Source: an uncultured Alphaproteobacteria bacterium (lineage in GTDB: Bacteria > Pseudomonadota > Alphaproteobacteria > Methylaequorales > Methylaequoraceae). Taken from it: a stretch of DNA of 64,000 bases. A program made the translations under genes and the position numbers. Numbering within the stretch: position 1 is the stretch's first letter; each line of letters starts with the position of its first letter. This document shows positions 5,746-59,982 of the stretch, in pieces. The notes beneath the pieces were generated by a model. That model was given only the letters and a program-made list of their open reading frames with translations, did no database searches and was not told where the DNA came from. The stretch covers positions 110,318 through 174,317 of the forward strand of contig CACEXK010000003.1 of NCBI GenBank assembly GCA_902563505.1. Reading direction: 5' to 3'.

Positions 5746-5820
5746 GGTGCCCAGGGGAGGAATTGAACCACCGACACAGCGATTTTCAGTCGCTTGCTCT
5801 ACCAACTGAGCTACCTGGGC
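5746..5820 (-). tRNA. tRNA-Phe (GAA)
   Basis: The reverse complement folds as a cloverleaf: acceptor GCCCAGG/CCTGGGC, D-loop AGTTGGTAG with GG, anticodon loop CTGAAAA (GAA), T-loop TTCAATT, discriminator A. CC is encoded. Confidence 0.85.
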
Positions 5821-29305: not shown

Positions 29306-30016
29306 ATGACTAGAGCGCATAAATTATTTCTTAAATGGCTGCTACAATTCAGTATGATTTTCTTTTTCATTTTCTTTGTTTATGATCAAGGACTAATATT
29401 TAAAATTTTATCCTCAGACAAGAGTTATATTACAAGTTTGATTATTATTTCTTTTATAGTTATCACAGGTCACTGCGCGTTTTATACATTTTTAATTTCC
29501 GATGAACTCAATAAGGCACATATTATCAAAAAAAGTCTTTTGCAGGAAAATGTGAAACTGAAAATAATTGAAGATAATCTTATTTTAACTTCTAAAGGCG
29601 AGGTTTCATCAGGAATTGTTTGTGACTATTTTAAAGATTTGATTGGTTTAAAAAAAAGTGGAGCTTCTTCACATGTTCAAATTTTAGATACATATTTAAA
29701 AAAAACAATTGGTTATTATGAGTTTGGGTGGTTTTTCTCTGACATTATGCTTAAGCTTGGATTGATAGGTACAGTAATTGGATTCATTATAATGCTGAGC
29801 TCTCTTTCTGATATCACAACCTTTGATGTGACTTTGCTGCAAGGTGTTTTAACAACCATGGGGAGCGGAATGGGCGTAGCCTTGTATACAACGCTTTCAG
29901 CATTGGTGACTGGAGTTTTAATTGCAGTACAATACTATAATTTAGAAAGTGGTTGTGAAGAGCTTTTTTCTGTTCTTAATCAGATTTCTGAAGTAAGTAT
30001 AGATAAAAGTATGTGA
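29306..30016 (+). CDS. MotA/TolQ/ExbB-family proton channel protein
   Basis: Three predicted TM segments. LGLIGTVIGFIIMLSSL followed by GVALYTTLSALVTGVLIAV matches the TM2/TM3 signature of the TolQ/ExbB family. Confidence 0.7.
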   Translation: MTRAHKLFLKWLLQFSMIFFFIFFVYDQGLIFKILSSDKSYITSLIIISFIVITGHCAFYTFLISDELNKAHIIKKSLLQENVKLKIIEDNLILTSKGEVSSGIVCDYFKDLIGLKKSGASSHVQILDTYLKKTIGYYEFGWFFSDIMLKLGLIGTVIGFIIMLSSLSDITTFDVTLLQGVLTTMGSGMGVALYTTLSALVTGVLIAVQYYNLESGCEELFSVLNQISEVSIDKSM

Positions 30017-30017
30017 T

Positions 30018-30614
30018 ATGTCCTACTCCGGAAGAAGACTACGCACAGACCCTTTCACAGATTTGCTTTTTAACATTCTTTTATCTTTTACATTGTTAAT
30101 GTTTTTGGCAATTATATTCATGAACCCTATTCCTAAGTCAGGAGTCATAAATCCAAAAGCTGAATACATAATCACAATAAGTTGGAAAGATAATAATCCA
30201 GATGATATTGATACATATGTTCAAAGCCCTACGGGGGACTTGGTTTGGTTCAGGGGTAAAGAAGCTGGTTTCGTTCATTTAGATAGAGATGATAGAGGAT
30301 TACTAAATGATACGATTGTTGTTAACGGTGAAAAAGTACAAAACCCTTTGAACCAAGAAGTTGTGACTCTTAGAGCTGTGGTTCCAGGAGAATATATTGT
30401 AAATATTCATTATTATGCAACGGTAACAAATCTTCCTGTTGATGTTAATGTTAAAGTTGAGAAAGTTAATCCGCAACTCGAAGTAATATATTATGGAACA
30501 ATAAATTTAGAAAAAAAAGGTGTAGAAAAAACTGCAACAAGATTTAATATTACACAAGATGGAGTTGTAAATGTCACAGGGAATTTATTTAAAAAATTAG
30601 TTCCAGAAAATTAG
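30018..30614 (+). CDS. ExbD/TolR-like single-pass protein with an enlarged (about 150 aa) beta-rich periplasmic domain
   Basis: N-terminus RRLRTDPFTDLLFNILLSFTLLMFLAIIFM resembles the ExbD/TolR cytoplasmic-TM region, including a TM Asp. Starts 2 nt after the MotA-like gene. Confidence 0.5.
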   Translation: MSYSGRRLRTDPFTDLLFNILLSFTLLMFLAIIFMNPIPKSGVINPKAEYIITISWKDNNPDDIDTYVQSPTGDLVWFRGKEAGFVHLDRDDRGLLNDTIVVNGEKVQNPLNQEVVTLRAVVPGEYIVNIHYYATVTNLPVDVNVKVEKVNPQLEVIYYGTINLEKKGVEKTATRFNITQDGVVNVTGNLFKKLVPEN

Positions 30615-30623
30615 GAGAGAAAA

Positions 30624-31145
30624 ATGAATGCTGAAATCTTTATTATAATAATTTGTTATGTCCTTATAGGTTTCCTATTAGTCCTGTTTAATTTAAGAAC
30701 TAATTTTAACTGGTTTATAAAGGCCACGATGATACTAGTTGTTACTTCTTTTTATCTGCTCACCTATAAATCTTTTTCAAATCTTGTTGGATGGCCATCA
30801 AACAATCCTCTCCCTGACAGATTCAGATTAGTTGCTGCACAGATATATGAACCTAACGCTCTAATTAACTCAGAGGGAGCAATATTTCTTTGGGTTACTG
30901 ATATGGATAACTTAGCAGGTTTGAGTACTCCTCGTTCACATTCAGTTCCCTACAATAAAGAAATTCACGAAAGCATATCAAAAGCTCTTGTAAATCTTAA
31001 GAATGGTATTCCTCAAATGGGAGAAAATTCCTCGGAAGAAAAAACTGGATTAATCTCAGCTATTATTAAGAAAGAAAAAATATCTAGCACAAGCTCTACA
31101 CTAAACTTTTTTGACATGCCTAATCAGCTTCTTCCTGAAAAGTAA
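30624..31145 (+). CDS. Membrane protein (2 predicted TM helices), unknown function
   Basis: 173 aa with two N-terminal hydrophobic stretches. Lies within the operon. Confidence 0.45.
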   Translation: MNAEIFIIIICYVLIGFLLVLFNLRTNFNWFIKATMILVVTSFYLLTYKSFSNLVGWPSNNPLPDRFRLVAAQIYEPNALINSEGAIFLWVTDMDNLAGLSTPRSHSVPYNKEIHESISKALVNLKNGIPQMGENSSEEKTGLISAIIKKEKISSTSSTLNFFDMPNQLLPEK

Positions 31146-31834
31146 TGAGACTATTTCTTCTATTTTTTTTATTACTATCCTGTTCTGAGGATTCATCAAC
31201 ATATTATCCATTGGATAAAATTAAATCCTGGTCGTACAGTGTTGAGATAATACCTGAGGTTGAAAAAAGAGTTTTGTACAAAAAAACAAATCTATCAATT
31301 GGGGGAAAAAAAATAAAAATTTCGGGAAAATCAAAATCTCTCTTTCCTGTAATCAGAGAAGATGGAACGACTTTTTTTTATGATATTACTGATAAAGGAA
31401 TATACAGAAATGGTGTTAAGTTTTTAAAAGATACAGAGATGAAAATTGAAAAGGAAAAAAGAATTGTTTTACCATATCCTCTTAAAAAAAATAAACAATG
31501 GGAAGTTGAGAGCAAAACATATCTTATTTTGAGAAGATATCCTTATTATGATTATAGAGCTACAACTGATTTTAGACTAAATTATAAAATACTATCCTTT
31601 AGTGAATCAGTTAATACACCACTTGGAAAGTTTCAAGAATGCTTATTAATCAGAGGAGTGGGTCAGGCCAAATTCATTGATAGCGAAATTGGATCAATAA
31701 ATATAAAAATTATTTCTGAGGAATGGTATTCAAAAAATGTTGGGTTAGTCAAAATGGTTAGAATAGAAGAAACAGACACAGACTTGTTTGGTACTACAAA
31801 GATGATTCAATTACTTGAGAATATTCAAAAATAA
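31145..31834 (+). CDS. Lipoprotein of unknown function (paralogue of 5051..5740)
   Basis: Lipobox FFLLLSCSE. TAATG overlap with the upstream gene. Paralogous to the lipoprotein at 5051. Confidence 0.6.
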   Translation: MRLFLLFFLLLSCSEDSSTYYPLDKIKSWSYSVEIIPEVEKRVLYKKTNLSIGGKKIKISGKSKSLFPVIREDGTTFFYDITDKGIYRNGVKFLKDTEMKIEKEKRIVLPYPLKKNKQWEVESKTYLILRRYPYYDYRATTDFRLNYKILSFSESVNTPLGKFQECLLIRGVGQAKFIDSEIGSINIKIISEEWYSKNVGLVKMVRIEETDTDLFGTTKMIQLLENIQK

Positions 31835-49284: not shown

Positions 49285-49399
49285 ATTTAATCAAACTTAA
49301 AATATCTTTTATATAAATAAATTTATAGGGTTTAATTTTTTTTTTTATTTAATATCATAAAAATGCTGTTTTACAGCTATGGCAATAAACGTTTGATTT

Positions 49400-49660
49400 G
49401 TGAACCGAGACGGACCCGGGGGCGGTACCCGGCGCCTCCACCAATAAATTAAGGGGGCGAAATAGGATCGACGTGCGTGGGAATTTTCAAAAACTTTGCC
49501 CGGAATGGTACCAACGTTATCGGACTAAAACTTATAAATGCCAACGATAATACAATGGCACTCGCTGCTTAATTTATTAAGTTAGCGCGGTTGTGAGATC
49601 ACCGGGCAACAGAAGTCTCATCGGCAAGGGCGGGCAATTGTTCGCCCTTGTTTGTTTTAA
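49400..49660 (+). ncRNA. ssrA: tmRNA (ssrA), circularly permuted two-piece type. The acceptor piece ends CCA at 49443 and the coding piece starts GGGGGCG at 49453.
   Basis: A GC-rich block in an AT-rich region. T-arm CCGGG-GGCGGTA-CCCGG, 3' acceptor strand CGCCUCC-A-CCA pairing with the downstream GGGGGCG, which gives a G3:U70 alanine identity pair. Tag reading frame 49540..49572 is GCC AAC GAT AAT ACA ATG GCA CTC GCT GCT TAA = ANDNTMALAA*. Terminator hairpin at 49626..49658. Confidence 0.8.
49626..49658 (+). terminator. Rho-independent terminator at the 3' end of the ssrA coding piece
   Basis: Stem AAGGGCG ... CGCCCTT with a 10-nt loop, followed by GTTTGTTTT. Confidence 0.6.
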
Positions 49661-50096: not shown

Positions 50097-50864
50097 TTAA
50101 TGATTTTTTCTATAAATTCCTTTGATGGAGATAGAAAAATCTAAAAAAAATAAATTTGGTACTTTAATAACTTTAATTTTTTCAAGACTATTATCTAAAC
50201 ATTTCAAAATTTTGTCTGAGAAATTTGGGTGTTCCCAGCAAATTATTTTATCATAATCTAATCCAAGTTTTTTATAAACATGTCGTCTTGTAAAAAAAAA
50301 TCTTCCAAGTCCCCATGCTAAATGTCCCTCATTTGGAATTACAAAAATTAAGTATCCATCCTTTTTTAAAATTCTGTTTATTTGAACTACAAACTCCTCT
50401 AAATTCATTATATGTTCTAGTGAAAAAAAAGATAAAACATAATCATATGACCTGGAAGATATTTGACTCATATCTTTAACTTTATTTATTATAAACTTTT
50501 TAACCTTTATTTTTCGTTTATTTAATTTTTTTTCTGATATTTTTAAAAAATCTAAATTAGTGTCTATTAAATCAAAAGATTTTGGAGTTTTACTTTTCCA
50601 AAATTTTTCATGGTCAAGAAAACCTGGACCTATTTCTATTATATTTTTATTATGAAAGTTAATTAAAGAATTTTGAATAACCTTATATGCATTTAGTTTA
50701 ATTAATTTATCTATTAAACTTTTATCTCTATGCTCATAAGTTTTTGTTATATTATTAATCCAGGATAACCAATCTTGATCGTCTTTATCAAAATTATAAT
50801 AATATTTTCTTCTATCACCGAATAATTTTTTATATAAAAAATATGGCAAAAATTTTCTTATCAT
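50097..50864 (-). CDS. Class I SAM-dependent methyltransferase
   Basis: IIEIGPGF (motif I) and an acidic motif II region. 255 aa. Confidence 0.6.
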   Translation of the reverse strand: MIRKFLPYFLYKKLFGDRRKYYYNFDKDDQDWLSWINNITKTYEHRDKSLIDKLIKLNAYKVIQNSLINFHNKNIIEIGPGFLDHEKFWKSKTPKSFDLIDTNLDFLKISEKKLNKRKIKVKKFIINKVKDMSQISSRSYDYVLSFFSLEHIMNLEEFVVQINRILKKDGYLIFVIPNEGHLAWGLGRFFFTRRHVYKKLGLDYDKIICWEHPNFSDKILKCLDNSLEKIKVIKVPNLFFLDFSISIKGIYRKNH

Positions 50865-51307
50865 ATCAAATAAAATTTTTAAAAAGTTGTTTAAATTATA
50901 TATTTTTTTTTATTATAGCAAATTTTTTTTTTTTTATCTTCATAGGATGTTATGATTCTATTTTTTAGCTCATTATTGCCTAACCAATCATCAAAAGGTT
51001 CATCATTAATCCATTTTTCCTTTTTGTTTAAAAAAATTTCAATTGTTTCGGCTTTATATATTTTTTTTTCGAGCTGGCTTTCCATTTTCTAACTCTGTTT
51101 TGATGTTGCATTCAAGAATTATTTGATCAGAAAAAACAAAATGATGAAATAAAATAAAATAAAAAGAAAATAAAATATTTTTTCATTTACACCTTATATT
51201 AAATTTGCATTTCATTGAGAATTAAAATTGATACATTTTAAGATATCAAAAAATAAATTCTTTTACTATTCTGAAAATGTAGATTTCTTCTCTAAAAAAG
51301 TTTTTCT

Positions 51308-52144
51308 TTATTTCTTATAATTTGGATTTTTTTGATTTGATTTAGTAATTTTTGTCAGTTCAGAAAAATTCAAATTTTTTTCCTTAGGAAAAGCAAAAAT
51401 ATAAAACTTTCCAACTCTATCAAAATGATTTTCTGAATTAATAAAATAATTTTCTTCATTGAAAAATCTGTAGTCAAACCAGTATAAATCATAATTTTGC
51501 GTAAATAAGAAGTTATTTAATTCAAAAGGGTTTGTAGGGTTATTTTCACATATTATGATGGGTCTGAATTTTTTAATAAATTTCAAACCACCCTCTAATA
51601 TTTGCTTTTCAAGTAGCTCTGCTTCTAACTTAATTAAATTACATTTTTTAATATCTTCAAATAAATCTAAATTTTTTATCTGAACTTTAGTTTTATTACC
51701 TTTATTAATTTTTATAAATTCAGAATAATTATAATTTTCTCCCAAACCGAATCCGCCAAAATTACCAACTTCTGAATAATTTATTTCATCTACGAGTACT
51801 TCCGTTTGTATTTTACCCATACCTGCATTAAATACTTCGACATTTTTTATATCATTAAGTGCTAAATTTCCACATTGGAGGTAATAAAGCATTTTTTGTG
51901 GTTCAAAGGAAAATACTTTCCCCTCATATCCAATTTTTTTAGATATTGGAATTGTAAATAAGCCTACATGTGATCCAATATCAAAAACATAATCAGATTT
52001 ACTTATTAAAGATAAAATTTTATTTAGTAATTTTTCAGACCACTCGCCGTATTCTCTGATGCTAAGTCCCACAAATTCATCATAATTTAAGAACATAAAG
52101 TCACCATGCTTTGCATTAACAAAACCTACAGAATTATTTTTCAT
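51308..52144 (-). CDS. FkbM-family methyltransferase
   Basis: VFDIGSHVGLFTIP ... FSFEP, typical of the FkbM domain. Confidence 0.7.
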   Translation of the reverse strand: MKNNSVGFVNAKHGDFMFLNYDEFVGLSIREYGEWSEKLLNKILSLISKSDYVFDIGSHVGLFTIPISKKIGYEGKVFSFEPQKMLYYLQCGNLALNDIKNVEVFNAGMGKIQTEVLVDEINYSEVGNFGGFGLGENYNYSEFIKINKGNKTKVQIKNLDLFEDIKKCNLIKLEAELLEKQILEGGLKFIKKFRPIIICENNPTNPFELNNFLFTQNYDLYWFDYRFFNEENYFINSENHFDRVGKFYIFAFPKEKNLNFSELTKITKSNQKNPNYKK

Positions 52145-52472: not shown

Positions 52473-53567
52473 ATGATTAGAGTTATGAGTAGAAAATTAA
52501 ATGCTATTGATTTATTCGCAGGTGCTGGTGGTTTGTCATATGGATTGTCAGAAAGTGGGATTAAGGTTTTATTAGCTAATGAAATTGAGAATGACTTTTC
52601 TAAAACTTACATGCTAAATCATTCTAAAACGGAAATGCTTAACTGCGATATAAGTAAAATTGATTTTAAAAAAAAAATTCAAGACTTGGGTTGTCAAAAT
52701 ATTGATATTTTATGTGGAGGCCCACCTTGCCAAGGTTTTAGTACTGTTGGTAAAAAAGATCAAAGTGATAGGAGAAACTCACTCTTTTGGGAATTTCTTC
52801 GCGTAGTTAAAGAAACTAGTCCTAAAGTAATTTTATTTGAAAATGTCTCTGGCTTTAAAACTTTATATAAAGGTTTAGCTTTTTCAACTTTACTAAGTGA
52901 ATTAAAAATGATGGGATTCAAAACTTTTCATAATGTTTTAGATGCGTCTGACTTTGGCCTACCACAAAGAAGACTTAGAACTATAATTGTAGGTGTTATT
53001 TTTGATAAAGCCTTCCAATTTCCAAAGTTAACGCATTATAATTTAGATAATTTATTTGGGGAAAAAAAATTGACTTTGATGGATGCAATATCTGATTTAC
53101 CGAATCTTAAATCTGGAGAGTCAAAAGATTTTTACTCTACAAAACCAAATAACAATTTTCAAAAGAAAATGAGAGGAGATCTAGAGATTTTAACTGAACA
53201 CAATGCAACGAATTACGGAGAAAAAATGAAAAAAATTCTAAGTTTAATTCCAAAAAATGGTAGCGTGTTAAATTTACCTAAGGAATTAAGGCCAAAGAAA
53301 TATTTTAATAATGTATATGCTCGACTTGATGGTGAAAAAATTTGTCCAACTATAACAAGAAATTTTGGTACACCATCTTCATCAAGATGTATTCATCCTC
53401 ACCAAAATAGAGCATTGTCAACTAGAGAAGGAGCTAGAATACAAAGTTTTCCTGATAATTTTAGATTTTATGGAAGTAAGACAAGTAAAAATCTACAAAT
53501 TGGAAACGCAGTTCCTCCACTATTAGGAAAATTGCTTGGTAAAGAAATTAAAAAGTTATTTTCTTGA
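52473..53567 (+). CDS. dcm: DNA (cytosine-5)-methyltransferase (type II R-M modification subunit)
   Basis: C5-MTase motifs I DLFAGAGG, IV GGPPCQGFS, VI ENV, VIII QRRLRTIIVG and X GNAVPP. Confidence 0.9.
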   Translation: MIRVMSRKLNAIDLFAGAGGLSYGLSESGIKVLLANEIENDFSKTYMLNHSKTEMLNCDISKIDFKKKIQDLGCQNIDILCGGPPCQGFSTVGKKDQSDRRNSLFWEFLRVVKETSPKVILFENVSGFKTLYKGLAFSTLLSELKMMGFKTFHNVLDASDFGLPQRRLRTIIVGVIFDKAFQFPKLTHYNLDNLFGEKKLTLMDAISDLPNLKSGESKDFYSTKPNNNFQKKMRGDLEILTEHNATNYGEKMKKILSLIPKNGSVLNLPKELRPKKYFNNVYARLDGEKICPTITRNFGTPSSSRCIHPHQNRALSTREGARIQSFPDNFRFYGSKTSKNLQIGNAVPPLLGKLLGKEIKKLFS

Positions 53568-54146
53568 TTTTAAAATTGGCCTAAATACGAGCCCTTTATA
53601 TTCTTTAAATTCTATTTCTTGGCCCCAATTATTGCAATCAACGCACATTGGTACAATATTTCCTATTTCGTATGATTTACTCTTCAAAAGATGTCCTTTG
53701 TCATAGTGATTCATTTTTCGTCCACAAACAGCACATCCACGTTCTTTGAATTTTTCTAAAATTTTTTGCCAATCTTCATTTGTCAAATTATTTTCTCTCT
53801 TGATTGAATTTTTAGTCCAAACCGGATTAGGTTCTTCAATTGAATGTAAAGACATCTGATTATTTCTGAATTTCTTTTCATATATCCCTCTGGTAAATCT
53901 TTTATTTCCAGATTTTATATACCAACCTAAATCAGCTAAATGTCTAGCCTGCCTCTTATATTCAAAATTATTCTCACTGTGCCATCTTTCAATTTCATCC
54001 TGAGTCATTGGTTTGGGCATCTTTGCATATAGGCAAATCAATTCAATAAGTTTTTTCCCAGATGGAAAATCTACTCCTTCATTCCTGAGATTTGAATGCC
54101 ATTTAGTTCGTATTTTAATTTCTAAATCTTTTAAAATTCTATTCAT
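53556..54146 (-). CDS. HNH-motif endonuclease, candidate restriction enzyme partner of the C5-MTase
   Basis: CAVCGRK...H..GH...N..PMCVDCNN (CxxC...H...N...CxxC HNH core). Convergent with the MTase gene, with a 12-nt 3' overlap. Confidence 0.55.
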   Translation of the reverse strand: MNRILKDLEIKIRTKWHSNLRNEGVDFPSGKKLIELICLYAKMPKPMTQDEIERWHSENNFEYKRQARHLADLGWYIKSGNKRFTRGIYEKKFRNNQMSLHSIEEPNPVWTKNSIKRENNLTNEDWQKILEKFKERGCAVCGRKMNHYDKGHLLKSKSYEIGNIVPMCVDCNNWGQEIEFKEYKGLVFRPILKSRK

Positions 54147-54168: not shown

Positions 54169-54453
54169 TTAGTAATTCATCCTTTTCTTTATTTCCTCGA
54201 CATATTCAGGAAAATAATCATTTATTTTCATTAATTTAAAAGATGCTAGTATTGAAGTGTTTGACTCATTATCTAGGAGAAACTCAAAACTTAAATACAA
54301 AAGTTTTTCCTTTGTAATTTTGCCATTCGTCAAATATTGATAAACTTCATCTGAAACATTTACAAGATGAGTCGTCACAGATTTTGAATTGATTGTAATA
54401 TGAAATTCATCATCTGAATTTTTCTTTATGTTTATTTTGTTATCAGCTACCAT
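54169..54453 (-). CDS. Hypothetical protein (94 aa)
   Basis: ORF only. No recognisable motifs. Confidence 0.3.
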   Translation of the reverse strand: MVADNKINIKKNSDDEFHITINSKSVTTHLVNVSDEVYQYLTNGKITKEKLLYLSFEFLLDNESNTSILASFKLMKINDYFPEYVEEIKKRMNY

Positions 54454-54571: not shown

Positions 54572-54964
54572 TTAATTAAGTGGATCATCTCCCACCTCAT
54601 AATTTTTTAATTTACCCTCAATTAATTGAAAATCCTCCCCTTCATGAGTTGTTATAGTAACATATTGATTTGAAGTTTTAACATTGAATTGCTCGTTCAC
54701 AGCATTTATATATGTTTTAACAAGTTCCTCAATTTGCTCTTTAGACCTCCCTTTTCTAATATCAAGATTCATTAAGCAAATCAAATCACCTTTTTCCGCC
54801 CTACCTAAATTTATATTATTAATGTCATGTTCTCTCAGACTTATTGCAATATGAGAAGTTCCCGTTTTCATAATATAACTAAATTTCGATTTTACAAATT
54901 CGATAAACCTTATTCTTTGCTGATTTTTTAGTGTAAAATTTATATCAAACTGTAAATGAGGCAT
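54572..54964 (-). CDS. Hypothetical protein with a Met-Pro N-terminus, possibly tautomerase superfamily
   Basis: The product begins MPHLQFDINF. Pro1 after Met is the hallmark of 4-OT/CHMI/MIF tautomerases. 130 aa. Confidence 0.3.
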   Translation of the reverse strand: MPHLQFDINFTLKNQQRIRFIEFVKSKFSYIMKTGTSHIAISLREHDINNINLGRAEKGDLICLMNLDIRKGRSKEQIEELVKTYINAVNEQFNVKTSNQYVTITTHEGEDFQLIEGKLKNYEVGDDPLN

Positions 54965-55027: not shown

Positions 55028-55849
55028 TCAATTAATTGTATAAAATAATTGTTGTCCTTTAACTCTAAAAGAAGAAATTAAATCTTTAGTTTTTCTTGAA
55101 TTTAACCAATTTACAAATTTACTTGTCTGAGACACCTTTGTGTCTGGACATTTATCGGGATTAATAGGAATCACACCATAGAAATTATATAAATTCGGCT
55201 CATTTTCAACTAATATTTTATGATCTCTTTTGTTGTTAAAGCTTACCCATGTTGATCTATCAGAAAGTATGTAAGCATTTTTATTTACAGCTATATTTAA
55301 TGAACCTCCCATACCTTGTCCAACAGAATAATACCAAGAATCTTCTCTTGGGTTCGGAACGAAATTAGTAAGTTCCCATAATTTTATCTCTTTTTTGTAA
55401 GTTCCACTTTCATCACCCCGAGAAATAAATCTAAACTTATTTTTTCTAATGATATTAAGTGAATCAACAATAGAATTTGATATACTAATTTTAGCAGGAT
55501 CATTACTAGGACCAATTAAAACAAAATCGTTGTACATAAATTCCTTTCTGAAAAGTCCAAAACCATCTTCAACAAACTTTTCCTCAGATTCTTTATGGTG
55601 AACTATAAGCAAATCACCATCACATCTCATGGAGTTTTTTATAGCTTGACCCGTTCCAACAGCTACCACTCGAACTTCAATATCATACTCATTTTTGAAG
55701 TTAGGTAAAATATAATCATATAAACCAGAGTCTCTTGTTGAAGTTGTAGATTGAAGAATAATAAAACTTTTGGATTTTGAAAAAGAATAATAATTTATAA
55801 ACAAAACTAAACTGAAAATAATTGAAATATATTTGGATATTGTTTTCAT
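55028..55849 (-). CDS. Periplasmic substrate-binding protein, tungstate/molybdate (TupA/WtpA-like PBP)
   Basis: Signal peptide, then ILQSTTSTRDSGLYDYILP, which resembles the TTSTxDSGLLD anion-binding motif of TupA-type binding proteins. No permease or ATPase gene is adjacent. Confidence 0.55.
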   Translation of the reverse strand: MKTISKYISIIFSLVLFINYYSFSKSKSFIILQSTTSTRDSGLYDYILPNFKNEYDIEVRVVAVGTGQAIKNSMRCDGDLLIVHHKESEEKFVEDGFGLFRKEFMYNDFVLIGPSNDPAKISISNSIVDSLNIIRKNKFRFISRGDESGTYKKEIKLWELTNFVPNPREDSWYYSVGQGMGGSLNIAVNKNAYILSDRSTWVSFNNKRDHKILVENEPNLYNFYGVIPINPDKCPDTKVSQTSKFVNWLNSRKTKDLISSFRVKGQQLFYTIN

Positions 55850-56008
55850 ATTAAAGAATAATAAATAATGTTCTAAATAATACTTATTCTATAAATTAGC
55901 AGCAATAAAGTTTTTTTATAAGAATCAAGACAAATGCCATAAACAAATTATTTGCATTTAAAAATCATTGATAATTTTTTTTAAAAACCAATATAACTTA
56001 TTAAGTTA

Positions 56009-56058
56009 TCCCACCCTAATTATTTTCCTTCATTTAATCCCAAAAATTAGGGTGGGTA
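56009..56058 (-). terminator. Perfect 12-bp inverted repeat (CCCACCCTAATT ... AATTAGGGTGGG), a hairpin immediately 3' of the 56060..56401 gene
   Basis: GC-rich stem that is unusual for this genome. There is no immediate U-tract, so it may be a terminator or an RNA stability element. Confidence 0.4.
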
Positions 56059-56059
56059 T

Positions 56060-56401
56060 CTAATGTAGACTATCAGAAAATTTAAATATTTTCTGTTCCT
56101 CTTTGGTTTTTTTGCAGATGGGGCACATTTTTGTTGCCAGTATCTGTGCTTTAATAAATAATTGGTCAGATTCTCTAAGTAATCTATTGAGTAGTTTCTT
56201 TGCAATTAATTTCTTTTCTGGAATCGACTTTGCTGATACCCAAAGTCTCTCAAATATTTGATTATATCTATAGTGCAGTTCTTTCTTTTTTTTAACTACA
56301 TCATCGATGATTTCAATTACGACATGGTCATAATTTTTTTCCTCATCAATTTCTTCAATTGAATCTGTTTCTTGACTAAATAAATCTATAAGTTTTCTCA
56401 T
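56060..56401 (-). CDS. Hypothetical protein (113 aa, acidic N-terminus, single C-terminal CxxC)
   Basis: ORF only. Confidence 0.3.
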   Translation of the reverse strand: MRKLIDLFSQETDSIEEIDEEKNYDHVVIEIIDDVVKKKKELHYRYNQIFERLWVSAKSIPEKKLIAKKLLNRLLRESDQLFIKAQILATKMCPICKKTKEEQKIFKFSDSLH

Positions 56402-56500
56402 TCTTAATTAAGTTATTATGTGATTGGACTTGTAAGAATTATTACTGGGGAGTGATATTCCTACAAGTCCTCTCAGCTTTTTTAGGACTTGAAAACCTTC

Positions 56501-58831
56501 CTAAAAACTTGCAATACCTTTAACCCATGCAGTTAGAGGTTTTCCCGCTCTTGCACCATCAGGATGTCTGGATGAAATATATTCTAGATCAGTTGCATTA
56601 TTTACTCCTGCAGTTATCGAGTAATTTTTGTTAATCTCATAACCAGCACGCAAATTCAGCAAGGTAGCTGAATCAATCTTTCCAGCTCTTGCATCAGGTG
56701 TTGATCCAGAAACTTCAGTATCAGTCTCCGCAGCAGTACCGTGTGTTTCAGAGTGGTGGGTTACATTTATTCCGAAAGTAAAAGGACCATATGCATAATC
56801 AATTCCACCAGAAAAAACATGCTCTGGAACATATGGGACATTATTACCATCTCGACCACCAGAGAAAATGGATTCAGAATCAGTTGAGGTTGAATCACCA
56901 TCTAAATTAGCATTTGTAAATGTGTAGTTTGCATAAAATGTTGTATCACCAGCAAAAGGCAAGAAATTTTCAGGTGAATAAGCGGTCATTAATTCAAAAC
57001 CCTTGGATACGATTTTACCTGCATTATCGGCATCACCACCTGTGTTCGAATTATCTAAAACCAAAACATTATCAAAGTCTGTTTTAAAACCAATAAATGA
57101 GGCCGAGAAGTTTTCATCAGCGTATCTAACGCCAAGCTCTTTCTGAACACTTTTTTCTGGTTGAATAGGTGTTCCATCATCTCTAGCTCCACTTGGAGAG
57201 GTAAAACCAAAACCTTTATAAACTGCACCATACCATTGCCAGTTTTCATCATGATTGTAAGTTAATCCACCGCCTGGAACAAATGCATAAGTTTTTTCTT
57301 CCAAGTTATTAGTGGTTCCCATTGTAGCAGCTCCACTTCTGTAATGCTGTTTTACATACTCAAATCGCGAGCCAAAGGATACAACAAAATTATTAATTGT
57401 AGCTGACTCTTCAAAGTAAGCCGCAGCTCCTTTTGTTTTTTGGTTTCTATCGGCATCAAAAGCATGTGAACTCGTTGTTAATGTCCCAGTATTTGCAGCC
57501 TGATTGTATGTATCAGTATATTGATCCCTGTTAATTGAATCATAATGAAACTTAAAACCAACTTTAAGGTCATGATCAATTCTTCTATTAAGAATATTAG
57601 TAGCAAAATCAAAATTAGTTTGGTTCATTACCCCGTAAGCATAATACTGTCTGTCGTTAGATTTATATCTCACAGTACCAGCTCTATCACCTCTATATAT
57701 TTCGATATCTGTTGTATTTCCGCCTCTAGCTGCTGTGTATGCTTTCGAAGAAATTGCTCTGATATTGGTGCCATTAACTCTATCTAACTTATACCAATCT
57801 CTATAAAACTGATTGTAATAAAAAGTAGTTGTATTCTTGATATCATCAGTAATCTCTGCATGAATCTTTGCGTAGTATGTTTTCGCTTCTGAGTTCATAT
57901 TGTCTAACTGACTGGCTACATACCTTTGAAAAGGGTCGTTATTAAAATCAGCAGTAGTTAAACCTGCATAACCCTCATAATAATCAAGACTATTATAAGC
58001 ACCTTTTAGCTCAAGAGTTACTTTGTTTCTTACAGGAAGCTGCCATAATAATTTTACCATTGGTGCAATCTGAGAAAGACCTCCCGCATCATCATCACCA
58101 TAATGATCTTGCGGACCTGCTCCATCTGCATCAACTGGACCAGTAAAATCTCTAAATCCGTCATTATCACGCCAGTATGCCTCCGCTAGAATAGCAATGG
58201 CACCATAGCGCCCAGTTATTCCATAATTTCCGTAAGCATGAGTTGAGATATCATTATGTGAGCCATACGATACACTTCCGTAGGCTCTTTGTCCGAAATC
58301 AATTGGTGTCGTTTGATAGTTTATAACACCACCGGTTGTATGTGGACCATACCTAAATTGCGCACTACCTTTTAAAATTTCAATCGAATTCATTTTTGCA
58401 GCTAATGGTGAATAATATGCATCTGGGGCTGAATAAGGGGCAGGGGCAATGTTGATACCATCTTCCAGCATAGTTACAGCTGCCGTACGTAAAGTGCTAA
58501 CCCCTCTCAAGCTAATGTTAGGAAAAATACCATAACCGTCTTCTTCACGAGAATAAACACCCGTTGAATTTCTTAAAATATCATTAATATTCTGAAAATT
58601 ATATTTTCTGATTTGTTCAGTTGGAATGTAATCACCAGAGCCGGGAAGTTCAAAATCCTGCTCTGGCGACTCATAAATGTTTACATCAGGAGCTACATAA
58701 GCGTAGTCCTGAGCATAAACATTGGCACTTAACATAAAGCAAAAAGTAAATGCTAACCTTGACATTTGACGAGCATATTTAGGTGCTAACCTTTCAGTCA
58801 TAACTGAACTAGTATAAATTTTTTTGCGCAT
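56501..58831 (-). CDS. TonB-dependent outer-membrane receptor
   Basis: Signal peptide (MSRLAFTFCFMLSANVYAQ), a plug domain with IEILKGSAQFRYGPHTTGGVINY, a long beta-barrel region and a C-terminal aromatic residue (…GIASF). Its GC content is visibly higher than the flanking DNA (roughly 40-47% by eye). Confidence 0.85.
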   Translation of the reverse strand: MRKKIYTSSVMTERLAPKYARQMSRLAFTFCFMLSANVYAQDYAYVAPDVNIYESPEQDFELPGSGDYIPTEQIRKYNFQNINDILRNSTGVYSREEDGYGIFPNISLRGVSTLRTAAVTMLEDGINIAPAPYSAPDAYYSPLAAKMNSIEILKGSAQFRYGPHTTGGVINYQTTPIDFGQRAYGSVSYGSHNDISTHAYGNYGITGRYGAIAILAEAYWRDNDGFRDFTGPVDADGAGPQDHYGDDDAGGLSQIAPMVKLLWQLPVRNKVTLELKGAYNSLDYYEGYAGLTTADFNNDPFQRYVASQLDNMNSEAKTYYAKIHAEITDDIKNTTTFYYNQFYRDWYKLDRVNGTNIRAISSKAYTAARGGNTTDIEIYRGDRAGTVRYKSNDRQYYAYGVMNQTNFDFATNILNRRIDHDLKVGFKFHYDSINRDQYTDTYNQAANTGTLTTSSHAFDADRNQKTKGAAAYFEESATINNFVVSFGSRFEYVKQHYRSGAATMGTTNNLEEKTYAFVPGGGLTYNHDENWQWYGAVYKGFGFTSPSGARDDGTPIQPEKSVQKELGVRYADENFSASFIGFKTDFDNVLVLDNSNTGGDADNAGKIVSKGFELMTAYSPENFLPFAGDTTFYANYTFTNANLDGDSTSTDSESIFSGGRDGNNVPYVPEHVFSGGIDYAYGPFTFGINVTHHSETHGTAAETDTEVSGSTPDARAGKIDSATLLNLRAGYEINKNYSITAGVNNATDLEYISSRHPDGARAGKPLTAWVKGIASF

Positions 58832-58870: not shown

Positions 58871-58962
58871 TTATGATAATAGTTATCATTATCGTTATTA
58901 ATAATAATGATTATCATTACCAAAACTTATTGTCAACAAGATAATGATAATTATTATCATTA
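58871..58962. promoter_or_regulatory. Three Fur-box-like operators in the divergent promoter region between the TonB-dependent receptor and the MBL-fold gene
   Basis: 58875-58893 GATAATAGTTATCATTATC, 58903-58921 AATAATGATTATCATTACC and 58940-58958 GATAATGATAATTATTATC, compared with the Fur consensus GATAATGATAATCATTATC. A minus-strand TTGACA -35 lies at 58931-58936 and its -10 region overlaps box 2. Confidence 0.7.
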
Positions 58963-59052
58963 GTTTTTTTTATCTTCTTAACTAATTTTTTTAATACTTT
59001 ATAAACTATCTATTAAACCTAAAATCAAAGACAAGAAACTATTCTATAGAAT

Positions 59053-59982
59053 ATGAAAAAAACATTTTTTGCCATAATAATTGTCTTTTTTTTCAGGATT
59101 AACGCTTTTGAAATCTCTGAGATTGATAAAGGAATTTTTGTTCATTATGGAATTCAGCAAGATTCCAACAAAAATAACGCCGGAGATATCGCAAATATTG
59201 GCTTTATAATTGGAAAAAAATCCATATTAGTCGTTGATACAGGTGGAACACCAATAATTGGCCAAAAACTTTTACAAAAAATTAAAGAAATATCTAATTT
59301 ACCTATTTCTCATGTTGTTATTACCCATTCCCACCCTGATCATTTTTTTGGAACTCAGGCTTTCTTAGCTGAAAACCCCAAAATTGTTGGGCATGAAAAA
59401 CTCAATAGATCTCTTTTAAGCAATTTTAATTTTTACAAAAACCAACAACTGAGTAATATTCAAGATGATTCAATCCAAGAGGCTCAACTTGTTAAGGCTA
59501 ATGTTTTAATCAAAACTAATAAAACAAAAATTATTGATCTTGGCGAGAGGTTTGTTGAAATCAAGGCATGGGAAACTGGCCATACTGATAATGACCTCTC
59601 AATTTATGATAAAAAAACAAAAACTTTCTGGTCGGAAAATATTTTTGTTAAAAGAACACCATCAATTCGTGCTAGTATCTTAGGTTGGAGAAAAAACTTA
59701 GAAGAAATTTCAAAAATGGAAATTAAACTGATAATACCAGGCCACGGAAAAGCTGTAGATAAAGAAAAAGCAATTAAGCCTATGATCAATTATTTTGATA
59801 GAATTATTGTCAAATTGAGAGAATTGCAAAAAAAGAATAAATCACTGCAAGAGTCAATAAATATAATTCTCCAAGAGTCAATTTTAGAGCCCTCAGAAGT
59901 TAACAAAGAAAATTGGATTTTATTTGATGAATATCATTATTCGAACATTACAAAAGCCTTTACCGAGCTTGAATGGGAATAA
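59053..59982 (+). CDS. Exported metallo-beta-lactamase-fold hydrolase
   Basis: Signal peptide and the HxHxDH motif (ITHSHPDHFFG). Confidence 0.7.
   Translation: MKKTFFAIIIVFFFRINAFEISEIDKGIFVHYGIQQDSNKNNAGDIANIGFIIGKKSILVVDTGGTPIIGQKLLQKIKEISNLPISHVVITHSHPDHFFGTQAFLAENPKIVGHEKLNRSLLSNFNFYKNQQLSNIQDDSIQEAQLVKANVLIKTNKTKIIDLGERFVEIKAWETGHTDNDLSIYDKKTKTFWSENIFVKRTPSIRASILGWRKNLEEISKMEIKLIIPGHGKAVDKEKAIKPMINYFDRIIVKLRELQKKNKSLQESINIILQESILEPSEVNKENWILFDEYHYSNITKAFTELEWE

Follow-up and report, generated by a model that had tools for sequence, protein, structure and literature searches.

A FecA-like TonB-dependent receptor of the marine order TMED127, with conserved Fur boxes at its promoter and a probable role in iron uptake

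The stretch of DNA analysed here (64 kb of contig CACEXK010000003.1 from an uncultured alphaproteobacterium, hereafter the window) encodes on its reverse strand a TonB-dependent outer-membrane receptor of 776 amino acids (aa). A previous reading of the letters alone (the sequence-only reading) had described the gene as GC-richer than its surroundings and as lacking TonB or ExbBD nearby. It had suggested either recent horizontal acquisition or strong selective constraint. We studied the domain architecture of the receptor, its composition, its operator sites and their conservation, its synteny and its lineage. The receptor is FecA-like, and the small partner protein encoded behind it is uncharacterised. 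What is new here is the regulatory result: Fur boxes are confined to the receptor promoter and are conserved in orthologues. The receptor gene and the elements attached to it are the following:

58875-58964, no strand: three to four clustered Fur boxes that differ from GATAATGATAATCATTATC at one to three positions (whole-window motif search)
56501-58831, reverse strand: FecA-like TonB-dependent outer-membrane receptor, 776 aa (Pfam Plug and barrel)
58712-58831, reverse strand: signal peptide, residues 1-40 (translation and 31-sequence alignment)
58676-58705, reverse strand: putative TonB box, residues 43-52, YAYVAPDVNI (aligned with E. coli FecA DALTV)
58325-58651, reverse strand: plug domain, residues 61-169 (Pfam PF07715, 61.2 bits, cut-off 23.9)
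56504-58294, reverse strand: beta-barrel, about residues 180-776, with C-terminal Phe (Pfam PF00593, 131.7 bits, cut-off 27)
56421-56475, reverse strand: RNA stem-loop just past the receptor stop codon, no U-run (minimum free energy −26.2 kcal/mol, z −4.1)
56060-56401, reverse strand: 113-aa partner open reading frame (ORF), called C1, directly 3′ of the receptor in 23 loci
55984-56056, reverse strand: terminator-like element made of a hairpin with a 12-bp stem, a second short hairpin and a U-run (minimum free energy −21.9 kcal/mol, z −3.2)

The reading frame proposed for the receptor in the sequence-only reading was exact at both ends, and the Plug and barrel domains were both matched in it. 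With a plug and a 22-strand barrel, the protein belongs to the TonB-dependent transporter superfamily. Orthologues were compared in a 31-sequence alignment. The signal peptide has a hydrophobic core after a long basic n-region with the consensus R-L/V-x-P-K-Y-T/A-R; cleavage is predicted between A and Q in V-Y-A-Q-D, and Q41 is invariant. This n-region (residues 1-22; 58766-58831, reverse strand) is unusually long and basic and contains the orthologue-conserved motif R-L/V-V-P-K-Y-T-R-x-x-S-W-L, and strong Shine-Dalgarno sites in sibling loci support the upstream start of receptor translation. In the putative TonB box, Y45, P48 and V50 are invariant while D49 and I52 are kept in at least 90% of the orthologues. 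A signal peptide followed by such a box predicts that the receptor engages TonB. The sequence ends in GIASF, with F776 kept in at least 90% of the orthologues, and this C-terminal aromatic residue is consistent with assembly into the outer membrane. We found no N-terminal signalling domain in the receptor: the plug begins about 20 residues past the signal peptide and the extension of about 80 residues present in FecA is missing in the alignment. An AF2 model of the receptor had a pTM of 0.73, with a pLDDT of about 80 in the barrel.

The promoter was studied with a search for the 19-mer GATAATGATAATCATTATC, allowing at most three mismatches, over the whole window. Seven matches were obtained whereas 0.09 were expected, and every one of them lay in the receptor promoter. 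None of 100 dinucleotide-preserving shuffles attained seven matches. The boxes are near-perfect and flank or overlap the best sigma-70-like promoter of the receptor (10 of 12 consensus matches in the promoter scan), which has a TTGACA −35 element at 58931-58936 on the reverse strand. They are located within a 221-bp divergent region common to the receptor gene and to the gene of an MBL-fold hydrolase (MBL, metallo-beta-lactamase). A site was found at most 300 bp from the start in 25 of the 30 orthologous loci having enough upstream sequence, and most orthologous loci without a match have a related TAATAATnATTATTA variant. Overall, the density of sites was 6.9 per kb upstream of the orthologues as compared to 0.002 per kb elsewhere, a difference of about 3,600-fold. 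Within the orthologous loci, no Fur box was found before any other gene, including tupA, the ABC genes associated with a DUF3299 protein and a second receptor. The MBL hydrolase gene had no Fur box of its own where it is parted from the receptor (locus L014). In the window, this hydrolase may be under the same Fur-controlled divergent region. From the overlap of operator and promoter and from the conservation in orthologues, the receptor is a predicted member of the Fur regulon. The annotation of AG-892-F10, the reference single-amplified genome of TMED127, includes a fur gene (PMC12542740), and in SAR11 canonical Fur boxes are found on iron-uptake genes (PMC4771312).

In a search of 5.8 billion proteins, the relatives of the receptor formed a continuous series from 97% to 50% identity, followed by a gap down to about 40%, and the matches beyond the gap bear generic 'Fe(3+) dicitrate' labels. 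The identical protein was not on record in public assemblies. When one genome per species was scanned, 33 species-level genomes proved to have an orthologue; almost all of them bear the label uncultured Alphaproteobacteria, Rickettsiales or Pelagibacteraceae. Those that could be placed span at least six genera of the order TMED127 ("Methylaequorales"). AG-892-F10 (L023), MED652 (L024) and MED657 (L030) belong to this order, for which the name Methylaequorales was proposed (Glass et al. 2025, PMC12542740). Its members are described there as marine methylotrophs that depend on lanthanides, are probably obligate and have streamlined genomes of about 1.5 Mb, and as the most transcriptionally active lanthanide-dependent methylotroph of oligotrophic surface ocean water. 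Other genomes were placed in TMED127 genera with the supplement of the same paper or, for the last one, from the genome name, TMED13 being listed as a genus in the supplement:

AG-901-J22 (L002): genus MED-G10
AG-337-K15 (L006): genus GCA-2691245
SP101 (L028): genus GCA-2711625
MED723 and SAT45 (L021 and L025): genus GCA-2710765
AG-896-A16 (L027): genus CACBWF01
TMED13 (L004): genus TMED13

The closest representatives of the window, among them the MED-G10 genome AG-901-J22, showed 74% identity for the receptor and 72-73% for FumC. The syntenic relatives of the window are therefore TMED127/Methylaequorales and not SAR11. An affiliation with SAR11 subclade V (HIMB59/AEGEAN-169) was considered and given up, as AG-892-F10, MED652, MED657, SP101 and further genomes with an orthologue belong to TMED127. 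A two-piece (permuted) alphaproteobacterial tmRNA at 49327-49623 on the forward strand (203 bits) agrees with the class; together with a single tRNA at 5748-5820 on the reverse strand, it makes up all Rfam matches in the window.

In 13-16 genomes the gene order reads ftsZ-mraZ-...-fumC-sspB, a gene for a 112-aa membrane protein and the MBL hydrolase gene, followed by the divergent receptor block with the receptor, the 113-aa ORF, tupA, a tautomerase-like gene and a 94-aa ORF. On the other flank, locus L038 carries thyX-apbC-hflKC-degP, and the same genes are found at 44-49 kb in the window. Gene order is thus kept on both flanks, showing that the receptor sits in conserved backbone, at the border of a variable segment. 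Pairwise identities of the receptor correlated with those of FumC (Spearman 0.75), SspB (0.77) and the MBL hydrolase (0.83), and mean pairwise identity was 0.69 for the receptor and 0.68 for FumC.

Base composition was then compared among the 58 ORFs of 100 codons or more that were called in the window without overlap. The GC-richness pointed out in the sequence-only reading is real but modest, 0.376 as compared to a mean of 0.295 (standard deviation, sd, 0.038; z 2.1), and the excess sits in codon positions 1 and 2. GC1 was 0.465 for a mean of 0.380 (sd 0.060, z 1.4) and GC2, at 0.434, was the maximum of the window (mean 0.301, sd 0.052, z 2.6). GC3 was 0.229 for a mean of 0.203 (sd 0.031, z 0.8). 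The receptor ranks second for GC, the sole GC-richer gene being mreB (0.398), whose product is very conserved and Gly/Ala-rich. Lines of 60 nucleotides with 40-47% GC had been reported, and indeed half of the receptor lines reach at least 40% (maximum 52%) as compared to 10% elsewhere. The residue bias that had been described held for Tyr (2.4-fold), Ala (2.2-fold), Thr (2.1-fold), Gly and Asp (both 1.5-fold), which are enriched with respect to the window, and for Lys (0.37-fold) and Ile (0.52-fold), which are depleted. It did not hold for Asn (1.08-fold); Leu was depleted (0.49-fold). When the receptor residues were encoded with window-average codons, the expected GC was 0.363, showing that protein composition accounts for 84% of the 8-point excess. 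The same offset was observed in all 23 orthologous loci tested, where the receptor stands 6-9 GC points above its neighbours (z 1.3-3.3) while GC3 stays near the local mean in 22 of the 23 (z −0.7 to 1.4).

Recent horizontal acquisition would mean import from a GC-richer donor, the composition of the host being still unmatched. It could account for a GC content 8 points over the window mean, for a synonymous codon usage that was the most atypical of the 58 ORFs in a length-corrected likelihood test (z −3.4), and for the position of the gene at the border of a variable segment that here holds a small restriction-modification island. However, GC3 is unremarkable and most of the excess is predicted from the amino acids. 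The per-codon effect of the codon bias equals that measured in the native hflK and in the MBL neighbour, and the bias recurs, like the GC offset, in orthologues throughout the order. As compared to neighbouring genes, the receptor prefers GGT in 26 of 26 orthologous loci, CAG in 25, AAC in 24 and CGY in 23, and avoids ATA in 22. The genomes of these orthologues are 40-50% apart at the protein level, so that synonymous sites are saturated and a common codon bias is one kept by selection. The bias must therefore be a mild, selection-maintained one as in strongly expressed genes, and not the remnant of a foreign donor. Also against transfer, the orthologues occupy one chromosomal frame in at least six genera, their divergence tracks that of FumC and SspB, and no integrase, transposase or other mobility gene was found flanking the receptor. 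A recently acquired genomic island would be expected to combine an atypical synonymous composition with a patchy distribution and with mobility genes at its flanks, and this locus does not have that profile. The sequence-only reading had itself named orthologues in relatives as an observation that would speak against transfer, and this is essentially what the conserved synteny in TMED127 shows. Overall, the data contradict a recent acquisition, which we consider extremely unlikely, and support the strong selective constraint that had been put forward beside it, given the residue-driven GC and the offset recurring in every locus tested. The higher GC likely has two causes, a plug-and-barrel composition rich in Gly, Ala, Thr, Tyr and Asp and poor in Lys, Ile and Leu, and a mild codon bias of the expression type. 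Where a genome is AT-rich, the amino-acid content of outer-membrane barrels and of highly conserved proteins makes their genes look GC-rich. Calls of transfer should therefore rest on GC3 and on orthologue synteny rather than on bulk GC.

To which substrate the vertically inherited receptor is devoted was studied through its relatives. No NCBIfam equivalog cut-off was reached, the best match being FecA (NF041676) with 143.5 bits for a cut-off of 1100. When a profile of 31 orthologues was compared to all PDB sequences, E. coli FecA scored 196 bits (E 6e-57) and all other receptors 60 bits at most. Using Foldseek with the AF2 model, the top match was FecA with ferric citrate (TM 0.82), ferric-siderophore receptors coming next. 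E. coli FecA (PDB 1KMO, 1KMP, 1PO3) shares with the receptor the plug and the 22-strand barrel as well as a TonB box that aligns, and its residues R380 and F333 have conserved equivalents, R394 and Y304. Both proteins are iron-regulated, the receptor by prediction from its Fur boxes. In contrast, the receptor is only 28% identical to FecA and has no N-terminal FecR-signalling domain. Its control would be exerted directly via the predicted Fur boxes instead of a FecI sigma-factor cascade, and neither fecIR nor fecBCDE was found among its neighbours. We take R365, R380, R438 and Q570 to be the citrate-binding residues of FecA; nine of the ten residue types that we assumed for FecA fit the E. coli sequence. 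In the orthologues, R365 is replaced by Y, A, L or F, R438 by A, D, S or E, and Q570 by N, in loops whose alignment is uncertain at 28% identity. The pocket thus differs from that of FecA, which makes diferric dicitrate itself unlikely as the ligand. The score, the low identity, the absent signalling domain, the missing neighbours and these substitutions rule out an equivalent of the FecA ferric-dicitrate receptor. A PQQ transporter of the PqqU/YncD type (PQQ, pyrroloquinoline quinone) was also rejected (38 bits as compared to 196 for FecA). No riboswitch was found close to the receptor in the Rfam scan.

Homologue contexts point in the same direction. A receptor from Methylohalomonas lacus (L040), belonging to the same subfamily with 38% identity, a similar length and no signalling domain, is encoded between bacterioferritin/Bfd and an FbpABC-type Fe3+ ABC transporter. 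The TMED127 locus differs by the absence of adjacent FbpABC, ferritin and Bfd and by the presence of the 113-aa ORF, the MBL hydrolase and TupA. Two TMED127 genomes, L025 and L030, encode both a siderophore-interacting reductase and a Peripla_BP_2 protein 5-8 kb upstream. Taking the Fur boxes, the kinship with FecA and the homologue contexts together, iron is the best-supported cargo that can be predicted. As to the substrate class that the sequence-only reading had asked for, an iron complex is best supported.

Other metals were also considered. The genes on either side of the receptor block are the following:

59053-59982, forward strand: periplasmic MBL-fold zinc hydrolase, divergent from the receptor (TIGR04559, 288.6 bits, cut-off 280)
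55028-55849, reverse strand: orphan tungstate-binding TupA (204 bits to 5MY5, 195 bits to 3LR1)

TIGR04559 is named 'quinoprotein relay system zinc metallohydrolase 2', and the match is just over the cut-off; the hydrolase adjoins the receptor in 16 loci. In TupA, the tungstate motifs TTTST and SRGD-SGT are kept, with an NCBIfam TupA score of 224 bits for a cut-off of 400. The gene is found in 16-17 loci, without adjacent tupBC and without a Fur box upstream. The possibility that this TupA-like protein serves as an FbpA-like iron partner was discarded, the protein being a close TupA homologue with tungstate motifs. Since a hairpin with a U-run stands between C1 and tupA and no Fur box precedes tupA, we treated the gene as a mere neighbour, and its product is probably functionally separate from the iron receptor. 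A tungsten formate dehydrogenase has been predicted for TMED127 (PMC12542740), which an orphan TupA fits, and a tungsten transporter was also reported for a different clade (AEGEAN-169 paper).

Downstream of tupA in 11-14 genomes are found a 130-aa tautomerase-like protein with a weak DmpI match (54572-54964, reverse strand) and a 94-aa ORF without family match (54169-54453, reverse strand). Beyond these, the synteny kept by siblings is broken at 52473-54146 by a small restriction-modification-like island with a dcm cytosine methyltransferase gene (213 bits), overlapped on the opposite strand by a 196-aa Cys-rich ORF. Two methyltransferase genes follow at 50097-52144, with a remnant of a sibling gene at 50894-51088. 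In siblings, the variable segment contains a Fur-family regulator, a second receptor, UPF0114 and a DUF3299/FtsX/ABC set. In about ten loci (L016 15831-19761 and equivalents), UPF0114, an ABC ATPase, an FtsX-type permease, a DUF3299 protein and a second Fur-family regulator are encoded downstream of the receptor block. This set was not found in the window. The DUF3299/ABC set presumably resembles zinc-regulated systems of the ZrgBCD type.

With such neighbours, the receptor could be devoted to another trace metal (tungstate or molybdate, zinc or manganese), its boxes being read by a Zur- or Mur-type paralogue. A bona fide TupA two genes downstream in 16-17 genomes, the DUF3299/FtsX/ABC set with its second Fur-family regulator a few kb away in siblings, and the fact that some alphaproteobacterial Fur homologues regulate manganese would agree with this proposal. 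However, the boxes fit the classical Fe-Fur 19-mer with just one or two mismatches and are missing before tupA and before the DUF3299 ABC genes, and receptor and boxes stay linked in loci devoid of TupA and of the ABC set. In addition, a terminator-like element parts C1 from tupA, and the close solved relatives as well as the context of the remote homologue are all iron systems. Another trace metal is thus unlikely.

Known lanthanophores are similar to citrate-type siderophores, which lends some weight to a receptor importing rare-earth chelates for an order whose members depend on XoxF. The TMED127 bacteria are lanthanide-dependent methylotrophs in which no lanthanophore system was found (PMC12542740), and the family of the neighbouring hydrolase is named for quinoprotein-dehydrogenase contexts. 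In genus TMED13, a PQQ-type glucose/sorbosone dehydrogenase is encoded directly 3′ of the receptor and small ORF pair (L004 12756-13952, reverse strand, GSDH 249 bits), and a PQQ glucose dehydrogenase was proposed to make a lanthanide chelator (Glass et al., PMC12542740). The comparison with LutH of Methylorubrum extorquens, the TonB-dependent receptor for lanthanide uptake in another lanthanide-dependent methylotroph, argues against such a role. In AG-892-F10, the gene that the authors matched to M. extorquens lutH is that of another and longer receptor, CDS.109, with 836 aa and on contig 1 (PMC12542740). The orthologue of the receptor studied here is encoded at about 151.7-154.0 kb of CACMWI010000002.1, on a different contig from CDS.109, outside any lut or xox cluster, and is preceded by Fur boxes. 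It is not the best homologue of META1p1785 within a lut or methylotrophy island, and no lut, xox or pqq gene was found in the window. Moreover, the operators fit the iron Fur consensus and the Methylohalomonas homologue stands within a ferritin-FbpABC locus. A lanthanide receptor therefore appears improbable.

C1 keeps its place after the receptor even in loci where all other synteny is lost. Its relatives are few, 29 representatives among 1.84 billion proteins, and neither a signal peptide nor a Pfam or NCBIfam family match was found in it. H43, Y46, R73, E77, S78, C93, P94, usually C96 and the C-terminal H113 are conserved, and these residues may form a putative metal site. In a single-sequence AF2 model of moderate confidence (pLDDT 67), the protein is a helical hairpin. 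The stem-loop between the receptor and C1 was observed at the same position with z below −2 in 18 of 20 orthologous loci, though with a sequence varying between genera; within genus GCA-2691245 it recurs as a long stem whose loop, about 28 nucleotides, is conserved. This stem-loop may be an attenuator or a transcript stabiliser, and the terminator-like element ahead of tupA probably ends the receptor-C1 transcript.

The last question concerned energisation. The absence of adjacent TonB or ExbBD emphasised in the sequence-only reading was verified. It is unremarkable because receptors usually sit apart from Ton genes. In locus L012, a canonical TonB (TonB_C, 70 bits) is encoded 450 bp from the receptor orthologue, and its relatives (38-46% identity) are encoded on AT-rich contigs whose gene order matches that of SP101, a TMED127 genome. 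Judging from these matches, a canonical TonB occurs in the order TMED127. With the TonB of the lineage as a query, phmmer gave no match in the six-frame translation of the window, and the family scans of 55 of its 58 ORFs revealed neither Ton nor Tol components. Wherever the canonical TonB was seen in related genomes, it was accompanied by a second receptor, about 660-680 aa long, having a Plug domain match only (L012 12749-15472; L042 5964-8687; L044 6621-8723). No Fur box was found before the second receptor in L012, and in L038 (12425-14946) a Fur-family gene lies between two receptors.

An atypical ExbB/ExbD-like pair had been noticed at 29.3 kb. It belongs to a larger unit, identified by domain scans and synteny:

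29306-31834, forward strand: four-gene module of conserved order, encoding a 236-aa MotA_ExbB-like protein (32 bits, weak), a 198-aa single-pass protein, a 173-aa two-helix membrane protein and a DUF3108-like lipoprotein

Only the first half of the proposed pair stood, and weakly. The 236-aa protein gave a faint hhalign match to E. coli ExbB, in the channel helices only. The 198-aa protein has an Asp within its membrane helix, but hhalign gave it a probability of 0.2% against E. coli ExbD. By such comparisons the pair is not a recognisable ExbBD system. One could still imagine the receptor being driven by this module in place of a canonical ExbBD-TonB complex, since its first protein has a MotA_ExbB channel domain, its members are 71-99% identical within the lineage, its order is repeated in distant Alphaproteobacteria in unrelated contexts (L035 5001-7634, L036 5001-7720), and ExbB/ExbD were unseen in the window and in the related loci examined. 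However, the second protein has no ExbD homology, none of the four matches TonB_C, and in the contexts examined the module is never beside a receptor or TonB gene. Canonical TonB is present in the order and, with no more than some 64 kb seen out of roughly 1.5 Mb, ExbBD or TolQR may be encoded elsewhere in the genome. We hold the module as the motor of the receptor to be very unlikely.

Several observations weigh against the receptor being a TonB-coupled, Fur-repressed and vertically inherited importer of iron. Members of the Fur family can respond to Mn, Zn or Ni, and the Fur homologue of some Alphaproteobacteria is a manganese regulator; no Fur-family protein was found encoded in the window. 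Only R380 is kept among the FecA citrate arginines R365, R380 and R438 (R394, in 31 of 31 orthologues). No inner-membrane or periplasmic iron partner was found adjoining the receptor, and several neighbours point to other metals, namely TupA for tungstate, the 'quinoprotein relay' hydrolase and, in siblings, a second Fur-family regulator together with the DUF3299/FtsX/ABC set. In the AF2 model, confidence is low for the plug region. No TonB_C or ExbD domain was found in the 55 window ORFs scanned against family libraries, which were all of the 58 but three at 21.7-26.6 kb, and none of the related loci examined contained ExbBD. Finally, there is the atypical synonymous usage described above.

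With these points taken into account, we regard the receptor gene as probably native to its TMED127/Methylaequorales host, inherited by vertical descent and repressed by Fur, its TonB-dependent product most likely taking up an iron complex. The identity of the metal, repression by Fur, co-transcription of the receptor with C1 through an attenuation step, and coupling to TonB are what we infer. When iron is plentiful, Fe-Fur would occupy the three to four operators over the −35/−10 region and the receptor gene would be off. When iron is scarce, the receptor would be made in quantity and would capture chelated iron on the cell surface. Its conserved TonB box would be engaged by a TonB whose gene lies in another part of the genome, driving import into the periplasm. 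The 113-aa His/Cys protein, co-transcribed past the conserved hairpin, would act in the cytoplasm. As a long shot, the receptor and the lineage-restricted C1 could form an undescribed Methylaequorales metal-acquisition module, with C1 as a new metal-sensing or metal-release factor. The chelate would then also carry rare earths, coupling iron and lanthanide scavenging under Fur, and the MotA/ExbB-like module might drive uptake.

TonB-dependent transporters had been described as scarce in streamlined oligotrophic alphaproteobacteria. This holds for SAR11, with none in Pelagibacter ubique (PMC3400609) and no siderophore or heme uptake (PMC4771312), but not for TMED127, whose genomes retain at least two receptors (lutH and the receptor studied here) in about 1.5 Mb. 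Like TMED127, SAR11 is a streamlined AT-rich marine alphaproteobacterium, and its Fe3+ ABC transporters are under Fur control. Iron uptake and TonB are not discussed in the TMED127 paper (PMC12542740). Our results suggest that these genomes of about 1.5 Mb retain, order-wide, a tightly Fur-controlled TonB-dependent receptor for complexed iron. As SAR11 has none in the same habitat and with the same streamlining, this retention in TMED127 is of moderate ecological interest. C1 is a small conserved partner protein to characterise, and the receptor with its operator provides a concrete marker for how TMED127 cells compete for iron.

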